64,000 nucleotides of DNA from Oscillospiraceae bacterium (GTDB taxonomy: Bacteria > Bacillota > Clostridia > Oscillospirales > Ruminococcaceae). The stretch spans positions 8,665 through 72,664 of the forward strand of contig JBJFFR010000183.1 of the NCBI GenBank assembly GCA_051891935.1. The letters are read 5' to 3'. Shown one piece after another: positions 9,410-17,544 of this stretch; the first letter of the stretch is position 1, and the number at the start of each line of letters is the position of its first letter. Both the position numbers and the translations under genes were made by a program. The notes beneath the pieces are model-generated. The model ran no database searches, had not been told where the DNA came from, and saw only the letters and a program-made list of their open reading frames with translations.

Positions 9410-10738
9410 ATGGAGCTTATCACAAAAAGACCAAAGGGAACGCAGGACGTTAAGCCGTCCGATGTCTACAAGTGGCACACGGTTGAGCAGATTGCCGCTG
9501 AAACGGCAGAATGCTACGGCTTTAAGGAGATACGTTTCCCGACTTTCGAGAACACAAAGCTTTTTAAGCGCAGCGTAGGCGATTCGACCGACGTTGTACA
9601 GAAGGAAATGTATGGAGTTACCGCAAAAAGCTCCGCTAACGGCAAGGACGATGATGACTTCACGCTCCGTCCCGAGGGCACGGCAGGAGCAGCAAGAGCT
9701 GTTCTTGAAAACGGTATGCTTTCGGACGCACTTCCGCAGAAGGTCTACTACAACATTTCCTGCTTCAGACATGAAAAGCCGCAGGCTGGCAGGCTCCGTG
9801 AATTCCACCAGTTCGGCGCAGAAATGTACGGAAGTGCTTCACCTGCAGCAGATGCGGAAATGATAGCGATGGTTGACGCTTTCCTCCGCCGCCTTGGAAT
9901 AAAGGGAGTTGCGCTCAACATCAATTCTATCGGCTGTCCGAAGTGCCGCAGCGAATATCACAAGGCACTAAAGAGCTATTTTGAAGGCAGAAAGGACGAG
10001 CTTTGCGGAACCTGTCGGGAAAGACTTGAAAAGAATCCGATGCGAATCCTCGACTGCAAGAGCCCTATCTGTCAGGACATTGCAAAGGATGCGCCGGTTA
10101 TCCTTGACTATCTCTGCGAGGACTGCAGCAGCCACTTTGAAAAGCTGAAAAAGAACCTTACGGCGATGAATATTGAATTCACCGTAAATCCGAAGATCGT
10201 AAGAGGTCTTGACTATTACACAAAGACGGTTTTTGAGTTCGTTACAACGAGCATAGGTGCGCAGGGAACAGTCTGCGGCGGCGGACGTTATGACGGACTT
10301 ATCGAGCAGCTCGGAGGAAACCCGACGCCTGCTCTCGGTTTTGCGATGGGCATCGAGCGTCTTATCATGACTATGGAAAATCAGGGCTGCGATTTTATCG
10401 AGCCGAAGAAATGCGCTCTCTACATTGCTGCAATGGATGAGGCTGCGCTTGAAAAGGCGATCGTTCTGACAAAGACTCTCCGTGATGACGGTATCTGGGC
10501 GGAATACGATCTTGCAGGACGAGGAGTTAAGGCACAGATGAAGTATGCCGACAAGCTTGGTGCAGATTTCACCATGGTACTCGGCAGCAACGAGCTTGAA
10601 AGCGGCAAAGCACAGCTCAAAAATATGGAAACTGGTGAAAAGGTCGATATTTCCCTCGGTGACAGCTTCCTTGATGATTTTTCCAACATCTCGGTTGCAA
10701 ATATGTTCAGCGGTGTGCTGGATGATATTAATCTTTGA
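9410..10738 (+). CDS. hisS: Histidine--tRNA ligase
   Basis: Start MELITKRPKGTQD at ATG 9410 (RBS aaaagga). Class II motifs (FRHEKPQAGRLREFHQ, GGGRYD) and a C-terminal anticodon-binding domain. Confidence 0.95.
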   Translation: MELITKRPKGTQDVKPSDVYKWHTVEQIAAETAECYGFKEIRFPTFENTKLFKRSVGDSTDVVQKEMYGVTAKSSANGKDDDDFTLRPEGTAGAARAVLENGMLSDALPQKVYYNISCFRHEKPQAGRLREFHQFGAEMYGSASPAADAEMIAMVDAFLRRLGIKGVALNINSIGCPKCRSEYHKALKSYFEGRKDELCGTCRERLEKNPMRILDCKSPICQDIAKDAPVILDYLCEDCSSHFEKLKKNLTAMNIEFTVNPKIVRGLDYYTKTVFEFVTTSIGAQGTVCGGGRYDGLIEQLGGNPTPALGFAMGIERLIMTMENQGCDFIEPKKCALYIAAMDEAALEKAIVLTKTLRDDGIWAEYDLAGRGVKAQMKYADKLGADFTMVLGSNELESGKAQLKNMETGEKVDISLGDSFLDDFSNISVANMFSGVLDDINL

Positions 10739-11247
10739 TCGTGGAATATCCGAGAAGAAAACCGAACAGGCTAAAAGGGTATGATTACAGCGGAAACGGA
10801 ACGTATTTTATTACAATATGCACCCGAGACCGTGAATGTATTTTATCGGATATAAATGTAGGGGACGGGTTTCCCGTCCCGATTCTCACGGATTACGGCA
10901 GAGTATCCGATAGATTTATTAATTTTATCACAGAAAAGTTTCATACTGTATTTGTTGATAAATATGTTATAATGCCAAATCATATCCATCTTCTATTGGT
11001 TGTACAAAATTCGGACATTACCGCAGGCGGGACGGGAAACCCGTCCCCTACAATTGGGAATGTCGTTGGCTGGTTGAAATATCAGATAACCAAACAAATC
11101 AATGATATCCGCGGCATAGCCGGACAAAAAATTTTTCAGCGTTCCTATCACGACCACATTATCAGAAACGAAAAAGATTTTCAGATGATATGGAAATATA
11201 TTGACGAAAACCCTTTGAAATGGGAGAGTGACTGCTTTTATGTGTGA
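10735..11247 (+). CDS. IS200-like Y1 (HUH) transposase domain protein, RayT-like (REP-associated tyrosine transposase type)
   Basis: YDYSGNGTYFITICT, HUH motif in MPNHIHLLLV and C-terminal FQRSYHDHIIRNEKDF...ENPLKW. About 170 aa and single-domain. The TTG/GTG start overlaps the hisS stop. Confidence 0.75.
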   Translation: MIVEYPRRKPNRLKGYDYSGNGTYFITICTRDRECILSDINVGDGFPVPILTDYGRVSDRFINFITEKFHTVFVDKYVIMPNHIHLLLVVQNSDITAGGTGNPSPTIGNVVGWLKYQITKQINDIRGIAGQKIFQRSYHDHIIRNEKDFQMIWKYIDENPLKWESDCFYV

Positions 11248-11734: not shown

Positions 11735-11766
11735 TTATATAAAATATATTGAAAGGAAGTTTTAAT

Positions 11767-13548
11767 ATGGCAGACACAATGGCAGGTCTTCACCGCACAC
11801 ATTACTGCGGCGAGGTCCTTAAAGCAGGAGAAACGGTTACGGTCGGCGGCTACGTTGACACGGTAAGAAACAAGGGCGGTATCATTTTCATGGTCGTTCG
11901 TGACAGAACGGGTATTGTTCAGCTCACCTTCAACGAAACAACGGACAAGGAGATATTTGAAAAGGCTGCGTCCTGCCACTCCGAATATGTTGTTATGGCA
12001 AAGGGTGAAGTCCGTGAGCGTGAGAGCATAAATGACAAGATCGCAACAGGTCATTTTGAGATATTTGTTGACGACCTCCGCATCCTTGCAAAGGCACAGA
12101 CCCCTCCGTTTGAGATCGTTGACGACACAAACACAAACGAGGAGCTTCGTCTTAAATACCGTTACCTTGACCTTCGCCGCAAGAAGCTCCAGGACAACAT
12201 CATAAAGAGAAGCAAGATTGCAAAGGTCGCAAGAGATTACTTTGCGGAGAACGGCTTTATTGAGATCGAAACACCGATGATGATAAAGTCCACTCCCGAG
12301 GGCGCAAGAGATTATCTTGTTCCGTCAAGAGTTCACCCCGGCAAGTTCTATGCTCTTCCGCAGTCACCGCAGATATACAAGCAGCTGCTTATGATCGCAG
12401 GCTTTGACAGATACATTCAGCTTGCTCGCTGCTTCCGTGATGAGGATCTCCGTGCGGACAGACAGCCAGAATTCACACAGATCGACCTTGAAATGTCCTT
12501 TGTTGACACGGAAGACATTATGCAGATGGCTGAAGGCTTTGTAAAGCGTGAATTCTCCGAGGTTCTCGGCATAGACATCCCGACTCCGCTCCCAAGGCTT
12601 ACCTATACAGAAGCTATGAACCGCTACGGTTCGGACAAGCCTGACACACGTTTTGAAATGGAGATCGTTGACATCACCGATACTGTCAAGGACACCGATT
12701 TTGTTGTGTTCAAATCTGCGATCGAAGCAGGCGGTTCGGTTCGTGCTATCACGGCAAAGAACTCCGCTGCAGCGCTTACAAGAAAAGAGATCGACAAGCT
12801 TATCGAACACGCAAAGGGCATTGGAGCAAAGGGTCTTGCTTACATCCGCTGGAATGATGACGCTCCCAACTGCTCGTTCGGTAAATTCCTCAAGGAAGGC
12901 GAGCTTGACGCTATTCTCAAGGCGACAGGAGCAGAAAAGGGCGATGTAGTTCTTATTGCAGCAGACAAGAACAGCTTTGTTCTTCCGCTTCTCGGTGCGC
13001 TTCGTCTTAAAGTTGCAAAGCAGCTTGATATGATCCCCGAGGGCAAGTTCAACTTCCTCTGGATCACAGAATTCCCGTTCTTTGAATGGAACGAAGAAAC
13101 ACAGCACTGGGACGCTATGCACCACCCGTTCACAATGCCGATGGATGAATGCTTACAGTATCTTGACAGCGACCCGAGCAAGGTATTCGCAAAGGCTTAC
13201 GACCTTGTTCTCAACGGCACGGAGCTTTCGAGCGGTTCTATTCGTATCACCGACTATGAGCTTCAGCAGAAGATGTTTGAATCGCTCGGACTTACCGATG
13301 AAGAGATCGAAGCGAAGTTCGGCTTCCTTGTTGACGCATACAAGTACGGTGCAGCTCCTCACGGCGGCATGGGAATCGGTCTTGACAGACTTTCTATGAT
13401 AATGTGCGGCGCAGACAATCTCCGTGACGTACTTGCATTCCCAAAGGTACAGAACGCATCCGAGCTTATGTCCTCCTGCCCTGCAGCAGTAGATAAGGAG
13501 AGCCTTGATATTCTCGGTATCGCTGTTACGGAAAAGGAAGAGGATTGA
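11767..13548 (+). CDS. aspS: Aspartate--tRNA ligase
   Basis: Start MADTMAGLHRTHYCGE (RBS gaaaggaag). Motif 2 FRDEDLRADRQPEFTQID and motif 3 GGMGIGLDRL. About 593 aa. Confidence 0.95.
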   Translation: MADTMAGLHRTHYCGEVLKAGETVTVGGYVDTVRNKGGIIFMVVRDRTGIVQLTFNETTDKEIFEKAASCHSEYVVMAKGEVRERESINDKIATGHFEIFVDDLRILAKAQTPPFEIVDDTNTNEELRLKYRYLDLRRKKLQDNIIKRSKIAKVARDYFAENGFIEIETPMMIKSTPEGARDYLVPSRVHPGKFYALPQSPQIYKQLLMIAGFDRYIQLARCFRDEDLRADRQPEFTQIDLEMSFVDTEDIMQMAEGFVKREFSEVLGIDIPTPLPRLTYTEAMNRYGSDKPDTRFEMEIVDITDTVKDTDFVVFKSAIEAGGSVRAITAKNSAAALTRKEIDKLIEHAKGIGAKGLAYIRWNDDAPNCSFGKFLKEGELDAILKATGAEKGDVVLIAADKNSFVLPLLGALRLKVAKQLDMIPEGKFNFLWITEFPFFEWNEETQHWDAMHHPFTMPMDECLQYLDSDPSKVFAKAYDLVLNGTELSSGSIRITDYELQQKMFESLGLTDEEIEAKFGFLVDAYKYGAAPHGGMGIGLDRLSMIMCGADNLRDVLAFPKVQNASELMSSCPAAVDKESLDILGIAVTEKEED

Positions 13549-13550
13549 TC

Positions 13551-13595
13551 TAATGCGTAATGCACTGCGAAGCTGGGCATCGTAATTGCGTAATT
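13551..13595 (+). repeat. Left inverted-repeat arm of the 13551-15377 island (heptad family)
   Basis: taatgcgtaatgcactgcgaagctgggcatcgtaattgcgtaatt. Its reverse complement recurs at 15326-15377 with one extra heptad. Confidence 0.9.
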
Positions 13596-13632
13596 ATTTT
13601 CAGCCGAAAGCATTTTTTCAATATACAAAACA

Positions 13633-13670
13633 CGCCGTTCACGGTTTTATTGATCGTGAACGGCGATTTT
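13633..13670 (+). terminator. Terminator hairpin after aspS (left copy of a 43-bp direct repeat)
   Basis: cgccgttcacg / cgtgaacggcg, an 11-bp stem. The 43-nt block 13623-13665 is repeated exactly at 15258-15300. Confidence 0.7.
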
Positions 13671-13689
13671 AATAAATCGGATAAAACAA

Positions 13690-13718
13690 TTGACAAAAGC
13701 CTATGTAACTGATAAAAT
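13690..13718 (+). promoter_or_regulatory. Promoter of small-ORF transcript, copy 1
   Basis: TTGACA (13690-13695), 17-bp spacer, TAAAAT (13713-13718). Confidence 0.6.
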
Positions 13719-13782
13719 AATGGTATGGGCATACCTAAACGGTAGGCGGTCAATCTTTGCTCCCTGAAAGGGGGGCGTTGCT

Positions 13783-13869
13783 ATGGGCGTTCTTGAAGTT
13801 TTAACTCTCGGACTACTTATTTGCGCTGTAATACAGCTAATGCAAAATAGCAATAACAAAAAGAAATAA
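13783..13869 (+). CDS. 28-aa hydrophobic peptide, candidate type I toxin, copy 1
   Basis: MGVLEVLTLGLLICAVIQLMQNSNNKKK. SD run GGGGGG lies 7 nt upstream and can pair with GCTCCC (13759-13764). The ORF is below the ORF-track size cutoff and is identical in copy 2. Confidence 0.55.
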   Translation: MGVLEVLTLGLLICAVIQLMQNSNNKKK

Positions 13870-13948
13870 CCGCCCCAGCTTCGAAATGCGGCGGTTAATC
13901 TTTCGCTTAAAGTTTCGGGAGCGACCGTCTATCGGTATTGCTCTCTTT
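13858..13948 (-). ncRNA. Predicted antisense RNA (candidate antitoxin), copy 1; ends approximate
   Basis: Starts about 7 nt downstream of the - strand promoter at 13955-13983. Runs through hairpin AACCGCC/GGCGGTT (13868-13896) into a T-rich tract (ttatttctttttgtt on the - strand) that overlaps the last codons of the small ORF. Confidence 0.45.
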
Positions 13949-13954
13949 ATAGTT

Positions 13955-13983
13955 ATTATAATCGCTTTTAACTGATATGTCAA
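13955..13983 (-). promoter_or_regulatory. Convergent consensus promoter, copy 1
   Basis: On the - strand: TTGACA (13983-13978), 17-bp spacer, TATAAT (13960-13955). Confidence 0.65.
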
Positions 13984-14033
13984 GATAAAAATCCTCTTTT
14001 TCAACGGCGATTTTAATAAATCGGATAAAACAA

Positions 14034-14062
14034 TTGACAAAAGCCTATGTAACTGATAAAAT
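14034..14062 (+). promoter_or_regulatory. Promoter of small-ORF transcript, copy 2
   Basis: Same TTGACA-17-TAAAAT arrangement, 344 bp downstream of copy 1. Confidence 0.6.
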
Positions 14063-14126
14063 AATGGTATGGGCATACCTAAACGGTAGGCGGTCAATCT
14101 TTGCTCCCTGAAAGGGGGGCGTTGCT

Positions 14127-14213
14127 ATGGGCGTTCTTGAAGTTTTAACTCTCGGACTACTTATTTGCGCTGTAATACAGCTAATGCAAAATAGCAATAA
14201 CAAAAAGAAATAA
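14127..14213 (+). CDS. 28-aa hydrophobic peptide, candidate type I toxin, copy 2
   Basis: Nucleotide-identical to 13783-13869, with the same RBS and 5' UTR hairpin. Confidence 0.55.
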   Translation: MGVLEVLTLGLLICAVIQLMQNSNNKKK

Positions 14214-14289
14214 CCGCCCCAGCTTCCAACTCGGCGGTTATTCTTACACCTAAAATTTGGGAGCGACCGTCTATCGGTATGCCCTCTTT
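14202..14289 (-). ncRNA. Predicted antisense RNA (candidate antitoxin), copy 2; ends approximate
   Basis: Downstream of the - strand promoter at 14296-14324. Hairpin stem AACCGCC/GGCGGTT is conserved (14212-14239), while the loop and body have diverged from copy 1. Confidence 0.45.
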
Positions 14290-14295
14290 ATATTT

Positions 14296-14324
14296 ATTAT
14301 AATCGCTTTTAACCGATATGTCAA
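14296..14324 (-). promoter_or_regulatory. Convergent consensus promoter, copy 2
   Basis: On the - strand: TTGACA (14324-14319), 17-bp spacer, TATAAT (14301-14296). Confidence 0.65.
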
Positions 14325-14468
14325 GAGAAAAAATTTCTTTTTCATTCAATCAACCGTCAGTTGATTTTTTAGGAAGGAATTAAACTGACATTCGTTTGAC
14401 ATTTTGGGTTTTTATATGCTAAAATAAAGTCAACAAAAGCTTTTGATTTTTAAAAAAGGAATGAAAAT

Positions 14469-15251
14469 ATGAATATCAGCATAGGTGAAAATATCAAAAC
14501 TCTTCGCAAAAAAATGGATGTCGGTCAGGACGTGCTTGCGAACGCTGTCAGCGTTTCCGTTCAGGCAGTTTCAAAATGGGAAACGGGACAATCGCTGCCC
14601 GATGTTGGAATAATCCCCGATATCGCAGCGTTCTTCGGAGTGAGTATTGACAGTCTTTTCTTCGGAGAAGCCGCAGACTGTACAAAATCGGACAGGCTTT
14701 CTCTTCCCGATGATGACAAGCTCTATATTGTTCAGGTTCGTAACGGCGAAATTCTTGACAGAGAAAAATGGGACAGAAATTCACACATAAAGCTCGCCGT
14801 TGAGGATTTCAAGGGTACGCTCCACGCCGAGATATGGGGCAGTGCGGACATAAAGGGAGATGTTGGAGGAAATGTGAATGCCGGTGACGGTGTTGCCTGT
14901 CAGAATGTAGGCGGAGATGTAAATTCAGGCAGCAGTACAGCTTGTCAGAACGTCAGCGGAGATATAAATTGCGGCGACAGTGTAAACTGCGGAAATGTCG
15001 GCGGTGGAATAAATTGCGGCGACAGTATAAACTGTGGGAATGTTGGTGGAGAAATAAACGCAGGCGACAGTGTGAACTGCGGAAATGTCAGCGGTTCGGT
15101 AAGTGCAAACAACCGTATCCGCTGCGGAAATATTTTCGATTGTCAAAAGATATCCTGTGAAACGCTCTATGCCGAGGGCAGTATAGAATGTGGTTCGATC
15201 GAATGCGGCGGAGATATCCACACAGGGGAAAAAATAAATGGGGTGAACTGA
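14469..15251 (+). CDS. XRE-family HTH protein with C-terminal Gly/Asn/Cys-rich 15-residue repeats (possible beta-helix, bactofilin-like)
   Basis: N-terminal HTH_3-like (IKTLRKKMDVGQDVLANAVSVSVQAVSKWETGQSLPD). Residues 133-222 form six 15-aa repeats (GGDVNSGSSTACQNV / SGDINCGDSVNCGNV ...). Confidence 0.7.
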   Translation: MNISIGENIKTLRKKMDVGQDVLANAVSVSVQAVSKWETGQSLPDVGIIPDIAAFFGVSIDSLFFGEAADCTKSDRLSLPDDDKLYIVQVRNGEILDREKWDRNSHIKLAVEDFKGTLHAEIWGSADIKGDVGGNVNAGDGVACQNVGGDVNSGSSTACQNVSGDINCGDSVNCGNVGGGINCGDSINCGNVGGEINAGDSVNCGNVSGSVSANNRIRCGNIFDCQKISCETLYAEGSIECGSIECGGDIHTGEKINGVN

Positions 15252-15267
15252 GATTTTATACAAAACA

Positions 15268-15311
15268 CGCCGTTCACGGTTTTATTGATCGTGAACGGCG
15301 TGTTCGTTTTT
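15268..15311 (+). terminator. Terminator hairpin (right copy of the 43-bp direct repeat)
   Basis: Same cgccgttcacg / cgtgaacggcg stem, followed by tgttcgttttt. Confidence 0.7.
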
Positions 15312-15325
15312 ATTATTATCAAATC

Positions 15326-15377
15326 AATTACGCAATTACGATGCCCAGCTTCGCAGTGCATTACGAATTACGCATTA
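15326..15377 (-). repeat. Right inverted-repeat arm of the island (heptad family)
   Basis: aattacgcaattacgatgcccagcttcgcagtgcattacgaattacgcatta is the reverse complement of 13551-13595 plus one extra heptad. It contains the ppk1 stop codon. Confidence 0.9.
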
Positions 15378-17544
15378 TAAATTGTCTGTCCGCTTTTCTG
15401 TTCTTTTTGCTGCGTTTGCGCTTTACCTTAACTCGTTTTGCAGGTTTTGCTGCTGTTTGAACCGATACCTGCTGCGGCTCCTTGACTGCGGCGGCATTTT
15501 CCACGCTTTCTTCGATAAAGCTTGCCTGCGAATCAATAAGCTCTTCGCCCGTTTTCGGCTGCTTATATTTATACGAGCTGTCGGGGAGCATAACTCTTGC
15601 CTTGACGTTATCGGCAAGCATCGTATTGAAGATGTTGACGATCCTCTCACGGACGTGTTCATCGTAGATAGGTGCTGCGACTTCAACACGGCGGATAGTG
15701 TTTCTTGTCATAAAGTCGGCGGAGGATATATAGAGCTTCATATCCTTGCCCTTGCCGAACATATAGATACGGGCGTGTTCAAGGTAGCGGCCGACGATGC
15801 TCGTTACCTCGATATTATCGGTATAGCCCTCGACGCCTGCGACAAGGCAGCAGATACCTCTTATGACCATCTGAATTTTAACCCCGTTCATTGAAGCTTC
15901 TGCGAGCTTGTCGATAAGCACACGGTCGGTAACGGAGTTCAATTTCAGACCGATATAAGCTTCCTCGCCCTTTTTAGCCTTTGCGATCTCTCCGTCGATA
16001 AGCTCTATTATTTTGTTCTGGAGGCTCAAAGGTGCAACAAGAAGATGCTGCGTATCCTCAACAAGCGTTCCCATTGAGAGGGCGTTGAAAACTGCGCCTG
16101 CTTCGGCTGCGATATCCTTGTTTGCGGTCATAAGGCAGAGGTCGGTATAAAGTGCGGAGGTCTTTTCGTTGTAGTTGCCTGTACCGATCTGCGTGATGTA
16201 TTCCACGCCGTTTCCGTTCTTGCGTGTAATAAGGCAGAGCTTTGAATGTACCTTGAGGTTTTCGGGGCCGTAGATAACGTTGCAGCCTGCGTCTTCAAGC
16301 TGCTTCGACCAGCCAATGTTGTTTTCCTCGTCAAATCTTGCTCGGAGTTCAACGAGAACAAGCACGTTCTTTCCGTTTTCCGCAGCGTTCACAAGGGCTT
16401 CGACCACCTTTGAATCGGAAGCGACACGGTAGAGGGTTATCTTTATCGAAACGACATCGGGGTCAAATGCCGCTTCGTTCAGCATACGCAGGAAAGGACG
16501 GATGGATTCATACGGATAGTAGAGAAGAATGTCCTTTTTGAGCACCTGGTCAATAACGGGCAGCTCGTGGACGATCTCACGGGACCTCTGCGGAACGGCT
16601 CTGCGGAAGAAAAGCTCGGGGTCTGCGCTTTCAAGCTTGGCTCTTATCGGGAAGACGCAGGAAAGGTCGAGCGGTGATTTCTGGCGGAAGATCTTATCGG
16701 GTGTAAGCTCGAGATTGCTGCGCAGGAATGCGAGCGATTCCTCGTCAAGCTTTCGTGAAAGCTCCATTCTTACGGGAGAAAGCTTTTTTCGCTTCTGGAG
16801 AAGTGATGTCATGACTTCACGCAGGTCGACCTCGTGGTCGTAGAGCGCTTCTTCCATATTGATATCGGCATTTCTTGTAATTCTCATCAGAGATTTGCAT
16901 AATATCTTATAATTTTCAAAGACGATCGGCATATAATGAAGTATAAGCTCTTCGACAAGCATAAATCTCATCTTATTTGCGGTCGGGAGGAAGATGACAC
17001 GGGAGAATGAGCCGCTTGCCGCAATTATGCCGAGCTTCATCGACTGGGATTTTGATTCGAGATGCGCAACGGCATATATTTCCTTGTTTTTAAGGAACGG
17101 GAACGGGTGGCGCTTGTCGATTATCTGCGGAGAGATGAGCGGAAGTATCTCTTTTGTAAAATAAACACGCAGGAACTCCTCTTCCTCTTTGGAAAGAGCC
17201 TTGAAATCGACCTGCTCAACGCCGTAGCGGTCTTTAAGCTGCGACATTATATCACCGTATGCCTTGTCACGCATAAGCGCAAGCTCGGTGCAGCGCGCAA
17301 AGATAGCGGAAAGCTGCTCAGCGCAGGTCATATCCGTTTTGTTGTCACGTTCCTCATCGTCAACGAGGGTTCTGTCGTAAAGCGAGCCGACTCTTATCAT
17401 AAAGAATTCATCGAGGTTCGACTGGAAGATCGAAGCGAACAGCAGACGTTCGCCGAGAGGGACGCGTTCATCCATAGCTTCTTCAAGCACACGCTCATTG
17501 AATTTCAGCCAGGAAAGCTCTCTGTTGTCATAATAATTTTTCAT
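15361..17544 (-). CDS. ppk: Polyphosphate kinase 1
   Basis: MKNYYDNRELSWLKFNERVLEEA N-terminus and PLD-like C-terminal domains (HSKLCLI, EHARIYMF). Length 727 aa with a Lys/Arg-rich C-terminal tail. Confidence 0.95.
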   Translation of the reverse strand: MKNYYDNRELSWLKFNERVLEEAMDERVPLGERLLFASIFQSNLDEFFMIRVGSLYDRTLVDDEERDNKTDMTCAEQLSAIFARCTELALMRDKAYGDIMSQLKDRYGVEQVDFKALSKEEEEFLRVYFTKEILPLISPQIIDKRHPFPFLKNKEIYAVAHLESKSQSMKLGIIAASGSFSRVIFLPTANKMRFMLVEELILHYMPIVFENYKILCKSLMRITRNADINMEEALYDHEVDLREVMTSLLQKRKKLSPVRMELSRKLDEESLAFLRSNLELTPDKIFRQKSPLDLSCVFPIRAKLESADPELFFRRAVPQRSREIVHELPVIDQVLKKDILLYYPYESIRPFLRMLNEAAFDPDVVSIKITLYRVASDSKVVEALVNAAENGKNVLVLVELRARFDEENNIGWSKQLEDAGCNVIYGPENLKVHSKLCLITRKNGNGVEYITQIGTGNYNEKTSALYTDLCLMTANKDIAAEAGAVFNALSMGTLVEDTQHLLVAPLSLQNKIIELIDGEIAKAKKGEEAYIGLKLNSVTDRVLIDKLAEASMNGVKIQMVIRGICCLVAGVEGYTDNIEVTSIVGRYLEHARIYMFGKGKDMKLYISSADFMTRNTIRRVEVAAPIYDEHVRERIVNIFNTMLADNVKARVMLPDSSYKYKQPKTGEELIDSQASFIEESVENAAAVKEPQQVSVQTAAKPAKRVKVKRKRSKKNRKADRQFIMRNS

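Follow-up and report, generated by a model that had tools for sequence, protein, structure and literature searches.

What is encoded by a 344-bp sequence that occurs twice, head to tail, between the aspS and ppk genes of an Oscillospiraceae bacterium (assembly GCA_051891935.1, contig JBJFFR010000183.1)? The sequence lies in a stretch of 64,000 nt, which we refer to, at its full length, as the window. An earlier note on this stretch had proposed that each unit is a candidate type I toxin–antitoxin (TA) module, in which a small hydrophobic peptide is encoded opposite a convergent antisense RNA. The conservation of the open reading frame (ORF) and of the convergent promoter among related loci argues for this proposal, and we consider it probable that each 344-bp unit is a type I TA-like module of the design of bsrG/SR4, which is known from the prophage SPbeta of Bacillus subtilis. 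Judged from sequence comparison, the ORF is under selection, and the two promoters, the hairpin shared by the two strands, the hairpin that holds the Shine–Dalgarno (SD) sequence and a long-range helix of the sense mRNA are conserved or covarying. The module is the expected kind of element and does not call for a new mechanism.

Both units carry the 28-codon ORF with one hydrophobic stretch and a Lys tail that had been described earlier. Its putative product, MGVLEVLTLGLLICAVIQLMQNSNNKKK, is hydrophobic from G2 to M20 and ends in the polar tail QNSNNKKK, and it thus has the properties of a small hydrophobic peptide (<60 aa, a transmembrane-type stretch and a polar or charged end). The exact peptide is absent from a collection of 15 billion proteins, and tblastn of the peptide against plasmids gave no match. 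Among phage genomes, tblastn identified a 28-aa homologue, MNTIEVLTLLLVIFAALSYIDNHNNKKK, in a human-faecal phage, the layout of which matches that of the window, with a promoter, an anti-SD/SD hairpin, an ORF, a hairpin and a convergent promoter. The wider family was gathered from IMG/VR and from bacterial contigs representing one genome per species, using degenerate DNA patterns derived from residues that the homologues have in common, with codons 1 and 5–9 as well as the last three codons and the stop held fixed. The matches amount to 64 stretches in IMG/VR and at least 120 in the bacterial contigs, and the family as a whole comprises at least 185 instances and at least 102 distinct peptides of 24–32 aa, with the consensus M-x-x-[LMI]-E-[VI]-L-T-L-(hydrophobic)-(polar)-KKK. 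The ORF is intact in all collected copies, and copies are located in differing intergenic contexts. Among the matches listed, the hosts are mainly Lachnospiraceae, with further copies in Ruminococcus, in Oscillospiraceae and on gut viral contigs, and the cultured carriers include Roseburia faecis JCM 17581, Blautia hominis KB1, Butyribacter intestini TF01-11 and [Clostridium] polysaccharolyticum DSM 1801.

The pattern of substitutions in this family is that of a protein-coding gene. The collected loci fall into 125 clusters at <88% DNA identity, each of which has kept the ORF. The mean column entropy at codon positions 1, 2 and 3 is 0.60, 0.25 and 0.93, respectively, this periodicity is equally clear in the pattern-free codons 10–25, and the mean pN/pS across the family is 0.25. 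A cleaner comparison is offered by the subfamily to which the window belongs. Its closest relative, L184, from an Oscillospiraceae metagenome-assembled genome (MAG), encodes the peptide MGVLEVLTLGLLVCAIIELMQNSNKKK, and its ORF is 74% identical to that of the window at the DNA level. Of the 15 codons that differ between the two, 12 are synonymous and three are conservative (I/V, V/I and Q/E), and there is in addition one in-frame codon deletion; the core of the 5′ untranslated region (UTR) and the antisense core are almost unchanged. In another close relative, L004, the ORF differs from that of the window by two synonymous changes and nothing else. According to the earlier note, homologous copies with frameshifted ORFs in otherwise conserved DNA would have implied a purely RNA or repeat element. 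The opposite was found, namely, intact ORFs in diverged DNA throughout the 125 clusters. Overall, as far as such comparisons go, the 28-codon ORF is a real gene under purifying selection at the protein level.

On the opposite strand, the perfect TTGACA-17-TATAAT promoter pointed out earlier is found in both units, and these are the only two 12/12 promoter matches in the region. Its position is conserved in the family: when the best minus-strand promoter is taken from the 230 nt downstream, its score is 10/12 or higher in 154 out of 165 loci, compared with 16 out of 153 random windows from the same loci, and in the 154 loci it lies 82–103 nt from the stop codon, three outliers aside. The RNA predicted from the first of these promoters begins with the lead AAAGAGAGC, which is followed by a small hairpin (complement of 13924–13936), GCUCCC (complement of 13917–13922) and a spacer; it ends with the terminator hairpin and a U-tract that is the complement of the Lys codons, and no AUG is present in it. 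The earlier note had sketched this path, through the hairpin and into the 3′ end of the ORF, and the path stands; the length of about 90 nt given there is to be replaced by a predicted length of about 100 nt (13948 to 13846). The core of the second predicted antisense RNA is equal to that of the first, and the core in the window reads GGGAGCGACCGTCTATCGGTA. In folding predictions, the hairpin probably serves as the terminator of the antisense RNA and as a weaker one for the sense RNA. Downstream of it on the minus strand comes UUAUUUCUUUUU, for which the Lys codons are the template. The shared hairpin is formed by RNAfold and was missed by a simple terminator scan, its loop probably being too long for the 8-nt limit of that scan.

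When 76 diverse antisense RNA predictions are aligned, a conserved purine-rich 5′ end is seen, and then a small hairpin, a C-rich motif resembling an anti-SD (GCCCUC, CCUCC, CUCCC or CCCCC) and an A/U-rich spacer. In the terminator stem, five out of six pairs display compensatory changes. RNAalifold recovered the terminator stem alone from these 76 sequences, the 5′ hairpin having been misaligned by MAFFT; by eye, the latter is compensated as well (AAUCGGA/UCCGAUU, AACUGGA/UCCAGUU and AAACGGA/UCCGUUU). The sequence AAAAAGAAATA, which encodes Lys-Lys-Lys-stop and templates the antisense U-tract, is present in every copy by construction, as it was demanded in the scans, and it was already common to three subfamilies found without demanding it. 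In silico, the antisense gene has its own promoter and terminator and is predicted to overlap the toxin mRNA.

On the sense strand, TTGACA-17-TAAAAT promoters are present at both units, as had been claimed, and a sense promoter scoring at least 10/12 is located 63–85 nt upstream of the ATG in 93 out of 165 related loci; in the region as a whole, there are 9 promoter-like sites, compared with 4.6 ± 2.3 expected. The suggested pairing of GCTCCC with the G-run of the SD is formed in the minimum-free-energy fold computed with RNAfold, in which the anti-SD GCUCCC (13759–13764) pairs with GGGGGGC (13770–13776). Across 125 loci, the SD is bound to an upstream partner (at least four of five SD nucleotides in the minimum-free-energy fold) in 88% of cases, compared with 27% when the upstream part is shuffled. 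The flavours of SD and anti-SD covary among subfamilies (GGAGG/CCUCC, GGGGG/CCCCC, GAGGG/CCCUC and, in the window, GGGGGGC/GCUCCC). Furthermore, a helix between a UTR motif and the sequence past the stop codon covaries between clades, being GGCGG/CCGCC in the Oscillospiraceae type and GGAUG/CAUCC in the Lachnospiraceae type, with a mean paired run of 6.2, compared with 4.7 for shuffled UTRs. The 5′ arm of the shared hairpin also matches the UTR motif GGCGG.

How would such a module work? A sigma-70-type promoter would drive a sense mRNA of about 150–190 nt encoding the 28-residue membrane-type peptide, and translation of the primary transcript would be held down by two locks in cis, the GCUCCC hairpin that pairs with the G-rich SD run and a 5′–3′ helix that joins GGCGGUC of the UTR to ACCGCC just past the stop codon. 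The convergent promoter would give an antisense RNA of about 100 nt that passes through the shared hairpin and ends on the U-tract templated by the Lys codons AAAAAGAAA. Since this RNA would run back through the hairpin to the Lys codons, its match to the 3′-terminal part of the toxin mRNA would be perfect and would extend for at least about 50–65 nt. If both RNAs are made, the predicted overlap takes in ~20 nt at the end of the ORF, together with the hairpin and any sense sequence beyond it. By analogy with SR4, pairing at the 3′ end might trigger cleavage of the duplex and may also free a 5′ UTR segment that reinforces sequestration of the SD. A weaker suggestion is that the 5′ half of the antisense RNA, with its UTR-like GCUCCC and small hairpin, could mask the SD and the AUG in trans. 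We infer the production of both RNAs, the toxicity of the peptide and its neutralization by the antisense RNA from this anatomy. The positions of the individual elements are given in Table 1.

Table 1. Elements of the two 344-bp units and their positions in the window
Element	Unit	Position	Strand	Basis
Repeat unit, complete peptide-gene and antisense-gene module	1	13659..14002	+	Repeat search, BLAST
Repeat unit, ~341–344 bp	2	14003..14346	+	Repeat search, BLAST
Sense promoter, TTGACA-17-TAAAAT with TG extension, 11/12	1	13690..13718	+	Promoter scan; predicted start near 13725
Sense promoter, TTGACA-17-TAAAAT with TG, 11/12	2	14034..14062	+	Promoter scan
5′ UTR; GGCGGUC at 13745–13751 is the predicted 5′ partner of the long-range helix	1	13725..13782	+	Fold
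5′ UTR, same as in unit 1	2	14069..14126	+	Alignment, fold
ORF 1, 28-aa peptide MGVLEVLTLGLLICAVIQLMQNSNNKKK, putative membrane toxin	1	13783..13869	+	ORF reading, family comparison
ORF 2, same 28-aa peptide	2	14127..14213	+	ORF reading, alignment
Shared hairpin, AACCGCC..GGCGGUU, begins in the stop codon	1	13868..13896		RNAfold
Shared hairpin, loop UUCCAACU (unit 1: UUCGAAAUG)	2	14212..14239		Alignment, fold
Predicted antisense RNA 1, ~100 nt	1	13846..13948	-	Ends predicted from promoter and terminator
Predicted antisense RNA 2; hairpin from 14266–14278, GCUCCC from 14259–14264	2	14190..14289	-	Alignment, fold
Antisense promoter, TTGACA-17-TATAAT, 12/12	1	13955..13983	-	Promoter scan
Antisense promoter, TTGACA-17-TATAAT, 12/12	2	14296..14324	-	Promoter scan

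The tandem arrangement itself was verified by repeat search and BLAST, in agreement with the earlier note. The two copies (13659–14002, then 14003 to 14343 or 14346) share a 227-nt block at 100% identity in the repeat search and are 95% identical over 344 nt in BLAST (E = 6e-154), and BLAST detected no third copy anywhere in the 64 kb of the window. Tandem Repeats Finder gave no call for the repeat, probably owing to its long period and to there being two copies. In a global alignment, the first 224 nt are identical and the last ~120 nt contain ~17 differences, including three 1-nt gaps, which corresponds to about 86% identity and bears out the earlier observation of about 220 identical base pairs next to a diverged antisense part. 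Two explanations had been offered for this contrast. For a divergence of antitoxin specificity, we found nothing beyond the differences in sequence: the two antisense RNAs differ in the 5′ lead (GAGAGC versus GAGGGC), in the spacer and in the terminator loop, and their functional cores, the small hairpin and GCUCCC, are identical. If the loops touch first, as in SR4, the loop difference could give each antisense RNA some preference for its own copy, which is speculation by analogy. Gene conversion of the toxin half, or a partial re-duplication, is the simpler reading. Because the identity of the first 224 nt extends over the promoter spacer and over synonymous sites, it goes beyond what selection alone would yield, and gene conversion or a recent partial duplication appears to be its most likely cause.

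Arrays of two or more copies are present in 5 out of 179 family loci. One of them is that of L184 (PUUB39_bin.016, ~269–1056 on the minus strand), a member of the window's own subfamily with three tandem copies at a spacing of 324 bp, located in an unrelated neighbourhood with a P-loop kinase-like ORF and a T-box-controlled threonine dehydratase gene. Tandem duplication is typical of type I families, including the ibs, ldr, zor and fst loci (Fozo et al. 2010, PMC2887945), and it is a recurrent trait of the 28-aa peptide family as well. In close relatives of the window, short-read assemblies (the Logan contigs L001 and L003 and the ENA contig L004) break inside or at the edge of the repeat unit, and copy number in such assemblies is therefore untrustworthy; the 3′ part of L004 looks like a hybrid of units 1 and 2. 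At the same site, a related Oscillospiraceae MAG, L002 (GCA_051881815.1, 4786–4960), has a remnant of the module: the antisense gene is complete, promoter included, and the hairpin and the latter half of the ORF are still present. The first 14 codons, the UTR and the promoter of the toxin gene are gone.

The 5′ half of the antisense RNA resembles the toxin UTR, with CAUACCUAAACGGUAGGCGGUC..GCUCCCUGAAAG in the UTR and CAAUACCGAUAGACGGUC-GCUCCCGAAAC in the antisense RNA. The earlier note had suggested that the CUCCC tract of the antisense RNA could pair with the SD in trans, and in the window this suggestion has some support: against dinucleotide-shuffled partners, the predicted, imperfect duplex between the antisense RNA and the translation-initiation region has z-scores of −2.3 and −4.1 in the two units, and of −2.8 in L184. 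Across the family, it does not hold, the mean z being −0.55. Duplex energies family-wide are equal for cognate, non-cognate and shuffled partners (−23.7, −22.6 and −22.4 kcal/mol), and the longest Watson–Crick match is 5.08 nt for cognate and 5.02 nt for non-cognate pairs. Masking of the SD in trans is thus possible, by these models, in the window's subfamily and unproven for the family in general. A more far-reaching idea, which we put forward tentatively and regard as doubtful, is a dual-mode antitoxin. Its 5′ half would be an inverted paralogue of the toxin UTR and would mask the SD and the AUG in trans, either in competition with the cis anti-SD or in its place, and its 3′ half would pair by overlap. 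In tandem arrays, the terminator loops, as the likely site of a kissing-loop contact (UUCGAAAUG versus UUCCAACU in the window), would diverge and so insulate each antitoxin for its own copy. If this were true, gut Clostridia and their phages would have the shortest Hol_Tox-like toxins (24–32 aa), equipped with an evolvable RNA specificity.

Several points weigh against the reading of the units as type I TA modules. Everything is drawn from sequence, much of it from MAGs and metagenomic contigs. At ~19 residues, and with Glu5 among them, the hydrophobic stretch is on the short side for spanning a bilayer, and the peptide of the window has no match in Pfam, NCBIfam or PHROGs even at E ≤ 10. The Rfam BsrG model (RF01412) reaches 20.5 bits, compared with a gathering score of 55, at 13745–13875 and 14089–14219. 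Conservation at the codons fixed by the search patterns is partly built in, so that the periodicity argument rests on codons 2–4 and 10–25. On the sense strand, a poor U-tract follows the shared hairpin, which makes the predicted 3′ terminus of the toxin mRNA, and with it the extent of the overlap, approximate. The deletion in L002 could be an assembly artefact or a collapse of the repeat, and the weak family-wide z-score for pairing in trans counts on the same side.

These points leave room for other readings. The anatomy of the RNAs would be right and the TA label wrong if the peptide were a small membrane protein under cis-antisense control, for example, a membrane-complex modulator or a stress peptide. 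Many small bacterial membrane proteins are harmless, and the peptide is very short and falls below threshold on every toxin model. However, the tight double translational lock, the constitutive-looking consensus promoter of the antisense gene, tandem amplification, a scattered ‘selfish’ distribution, carriage by phages and the loss in L002 of the peptide gene but not of the antisense gene form, in combination, the hallmark of type I toxins, and the remote similarity to BsrG/Hol_Tox comes in addition. If it is not an assembly error, the state of L002 is how a toxin gene guarded by a protective RNA would be expected to decay. Collectively, these observations make a non-toxic role rather unlikely.

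A second possibility concerns the biological role and is compatible with a type I mechanism: the module might serve mainly a phage or prophage function, such as that of a holin-like lysis helper, superinfection exclusion or abortive infection, and the copies in the window would then be domesticated or left-over morons. Sixty-odd matches are on IMG/VR viral contigs and one is on a GenBank phage, and bsrG itself resides on the prophage SPbeta. In the siphovirus-like phage L021 (IMG/VR uncultivated virus genome, UViG, 3300045988_022170), the member MSVMEVLTLLLLITNIIGLVLNVCNKKK (10769–11235) directly follows the major tail protein gene and precedes the next morphogenesis gene. Both promoters of this member score 12/12. 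The phage type is an abundant one, with 27 similar contigs, and the module is placed in its morphogenesis operon like a moron. In the window, however, the module is found in the interval from aspS to ppk, in the vicinity of which there are no phage genes, and prophage context was looked at in a minority of the genome matches. We find a primarily phage-related function of the module improbable.

Could the 28-codon ORF be fortuitous, and the unit a non-coding repeat or an RNA-only element? The ORF is too short for standard gene finders, its exact product is missing from the 15-billion-protein collection, and in the comparison with L184 the ORF has changed more than the 5′ UTR and the antisense core have. 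This reading was rejected and is hardly credible, as all collected copies (at least 185) keep an ORF of 24–32 codons despite their DNA divergence, with third-position periodicity, a pN/pS of 0.25 and synonymous changes in 12 of the 15 codons that differ from L184. Equally remote, and also rejected, is a leader peptide or attenuator controlling the downstream HTH_3 gene (14469–15251), as might be suggested by a short ORF and a hairpin upstream of a same-strand gene and by the 44-nt hairpin copies that bracket the TA units and this gene together: the HTH gene has its own promoter-like site (14396–14425), related modules lie beside unrelated genes (the kinase-like ORF in L184, the tail gene in L021), and the conserved convergent promoter is not needed by an attenuator.

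The neighbours of the units in the window are aspS (11749–13548, plus strand), the HTH_3 regulator gene on the plus strand and ppk (15361–17544, minus strand). In the XRE-type HTH_3 protein, about five degenerate 15-aa repeats (G-G-D/E-I/V-N-x-G; 45-nt period; 14865–15226) with a weak bactofilin-like signal come after the domain; the protein is recorded in NCBI for an Oscillospiraceae MAG, and its gene is unlinked to the module in other genomes. A 44-nt terminator-like palindrome, present twice in direct orientation without a single difference (13622–13665 and 15257–15300), encloses the 1.6 kb that hold the TA units and the HTH gene, and the repeat of unit 1 begins within the 3′ arm of the left palindrome. 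Farther out are two 50-nt arms (13551–13600 and 15321–15370) that are 94% complementary; each immediately follows the stop codon of one of the two convergent genes, aspS and ppk. The palindrome pair is also found in L002, where the right outer arm is shorter. Taken together, the palindromes and arms suggest an insertion into, or a duplication of, a bidirectional terminator. A 170-aa ORF (10735–11247, plus strand), located between hisS and aspS and overlapping the end of the upstream gene by 4 nt, matches the Pfam IS200-like Y1 transposase at 21.7 bits, compared with a threshold of 23. It could be a repetitive extragenic palindrome (REP)-associated, RAYT-like transposase, which is of interest given the palindromes 2.4 kb downstream.

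Does the peptide belong to a known family? The peptide of the window stays below the Hol_Tox gathering score of 23.3 bits, and Fst_toxin and every other Pfam family gave no match to it at E ≤ 10. Relatives among the matches listed reach 8–15 bits against Hol_Tox, compared with 34.5 bits for the control BsrG, the sequence of which was verified against annotated bsrG; 9 out of 32 family peptides have such sub-threshold matches, the best with E = 7.6e-4. When the family was compared by hhalign with an alignment of bona fide Hol_Tox proteins, each of them assigned to PF16935 (among them annotated BsrG and entries named ‘putative holin-like toxin’, 26–38 aa), the probability was 76.7% (P = 2.1e-5, 22 aligned columns). 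Short members of Hol_Tox such as MTVYESLSLMIMFGTLIAILCSFHKK look much like MNTMEVLTLLLVIFAALSYIDNHKKK. The sub-threshold Rfam BsrG alignment spans the long-range helix (GGCGGUC), the SD hairpin, the AUG, the Glu-5 codon and KKK-stop, and extends to ACCGCC; in 17 related loci, no Rfam family reaches its gathering score over the module. Weak matches to NCBIfam ComI and to Rfam STnc240 and rdlD were rejected as look-alikes in composition or in the terminator. The likeness to txpA/ratA and bsrG/SR4 pointed out in the earlier note is apt, as the weak signals that recur are those of Rfam BsrG and of Pfam Hol_Tox, which holds BsrG, and no others. The module is probably a distant, shortened branch of the BsrG/TxpA superfamily. 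Since the formal Pfam and Rfam thresholds are not reached, we class it as an element of the type I TA kind and not as a member of the BsrG family.

Database proteins were matched by means of an alignment of doubled peptides. Among the best 120 of the 864 matching proteins, none has an informative name, a Pfam domain is present in one alone (P0064), and most are N- or C-terminally mis-extended calls. Public protein sets label the family at most ‘hypothetical protein’, and a literature search for the peptide motif returned nothing relevant. As had been foreseen, the ORF is missed by standard annotation, being too short for standard gene finders, and no database names the family. Type I TA modules are nearly invisible to annotation, and here a coherent family of at least 100 distinct peptides of 24–32 aa with a conserved antisense gene, distributed over Lachnospiraceae, Ruminococcus, Oscillospiraceae and their phages, lies below the threshold of every Pfam, NCBIfam, PHROGs and Rfam model. 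The family is large and unannotated, and to a specialist its design comes as no surprise. Should the family be validated, the BsrG/TxpA superfamily would reach into the dominant gut Firmicutes, organisms that are difficult to engineer could be given compact kill switches under RNA control, and a recurrent phage moron would join the candidates for prophage-stability or exclusion functions. The 2019 review of Clostridia covers the systems of C. difficile and a few TxpA-like and Fst-like sequences in C. bolteae and C. asparagiforme that stem from the survey of 2010, and nothing more.

Among the characterized systems, sprA1/SprA1AS of Staphylococcus aureus is the model for a possible anti-SD action in trans, as predicted here from the z-scores of the two units: SprA1AS overlaps the 3′ end of sprA1 and acts through a non-overlapping 5′ domain on the ribosome-binding site of the toxin (review PMC6563280). 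It has no sequence relationship to the module described here. The par locus (fst/RNA II) of the Enterococcus faecalis plasmid pAD1 shares with the layout predicted for the module the convergent transcripts and a bidirectional terminator common to both. In par, a second complementarity, between the 5′ part of the antitoxin and the initiation region of the toxin, arises from DNA repeats. Similar repeats are discernible in the window (13745–13761 resembles 13889–13905, and 13770–13800 resembles 13917–13945); unlike Fst, however, the peptide lacks the Pro-containing Fst motif, and the trans pairing is unsupported across the family. The txpA/ratA pair of the B. subtilis skin element has in common with the layout predicted for the module a 3′-overlapping convergent antisense RNA, prophage-like sites and, probably, a toxin of the Hol_Tox type. 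At 59 aa, TxpA is longer than the 28-aa peptide. TxpA-like sequences, most of them unannotated, have been reported from Clostridiales (C. bolteae; Fozo et al. 2010, PMC2887945).

The closest counterpart is bsrG/SR4. Both peptides start with M-x-x-x-E-x-L-x-L, continue with a hydrophobic stretch and end in KKK. In both systems, a convergent antisense RNA, predicted in our case, overlaps the 3′ end of the toxin mRNA in a shared terminator region, the SD is held in a short hairpin, a helix joins the 5′ UTR to the sequence after the stop codon, and carriage by phages occurs. SR4 is ~180 nt long with a 123-nt overlap, compared with the ~100 nt predicted for the antisense RNA of the module. The BsrG toxin has 38 aa instead of 28, its host belongs to the Bacilli and not to the Oscillospiraceae and Lachnospiraceae, and a repetition of the toxin's UTR anti-SD module in the 5′ half of the antisense RNA distinguishes the module from bsrG/SR4. 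With the Pfam and Rfam scores below threshold, homology between the two systems is only probable (hhalign, 76.7%). SR4 destabilizes bsrG mRNA, which decays in an RNase III-dependent manner, with the first contact made by the terminator loops, and its binding lengthens the SD-sequestering helix from 4 to 8 bp (PMC3834814). Given that the SD hairpin and the 5′–3′ helix are common to both, a mechanism like that of SR4 is the best inference for the two units in the window.

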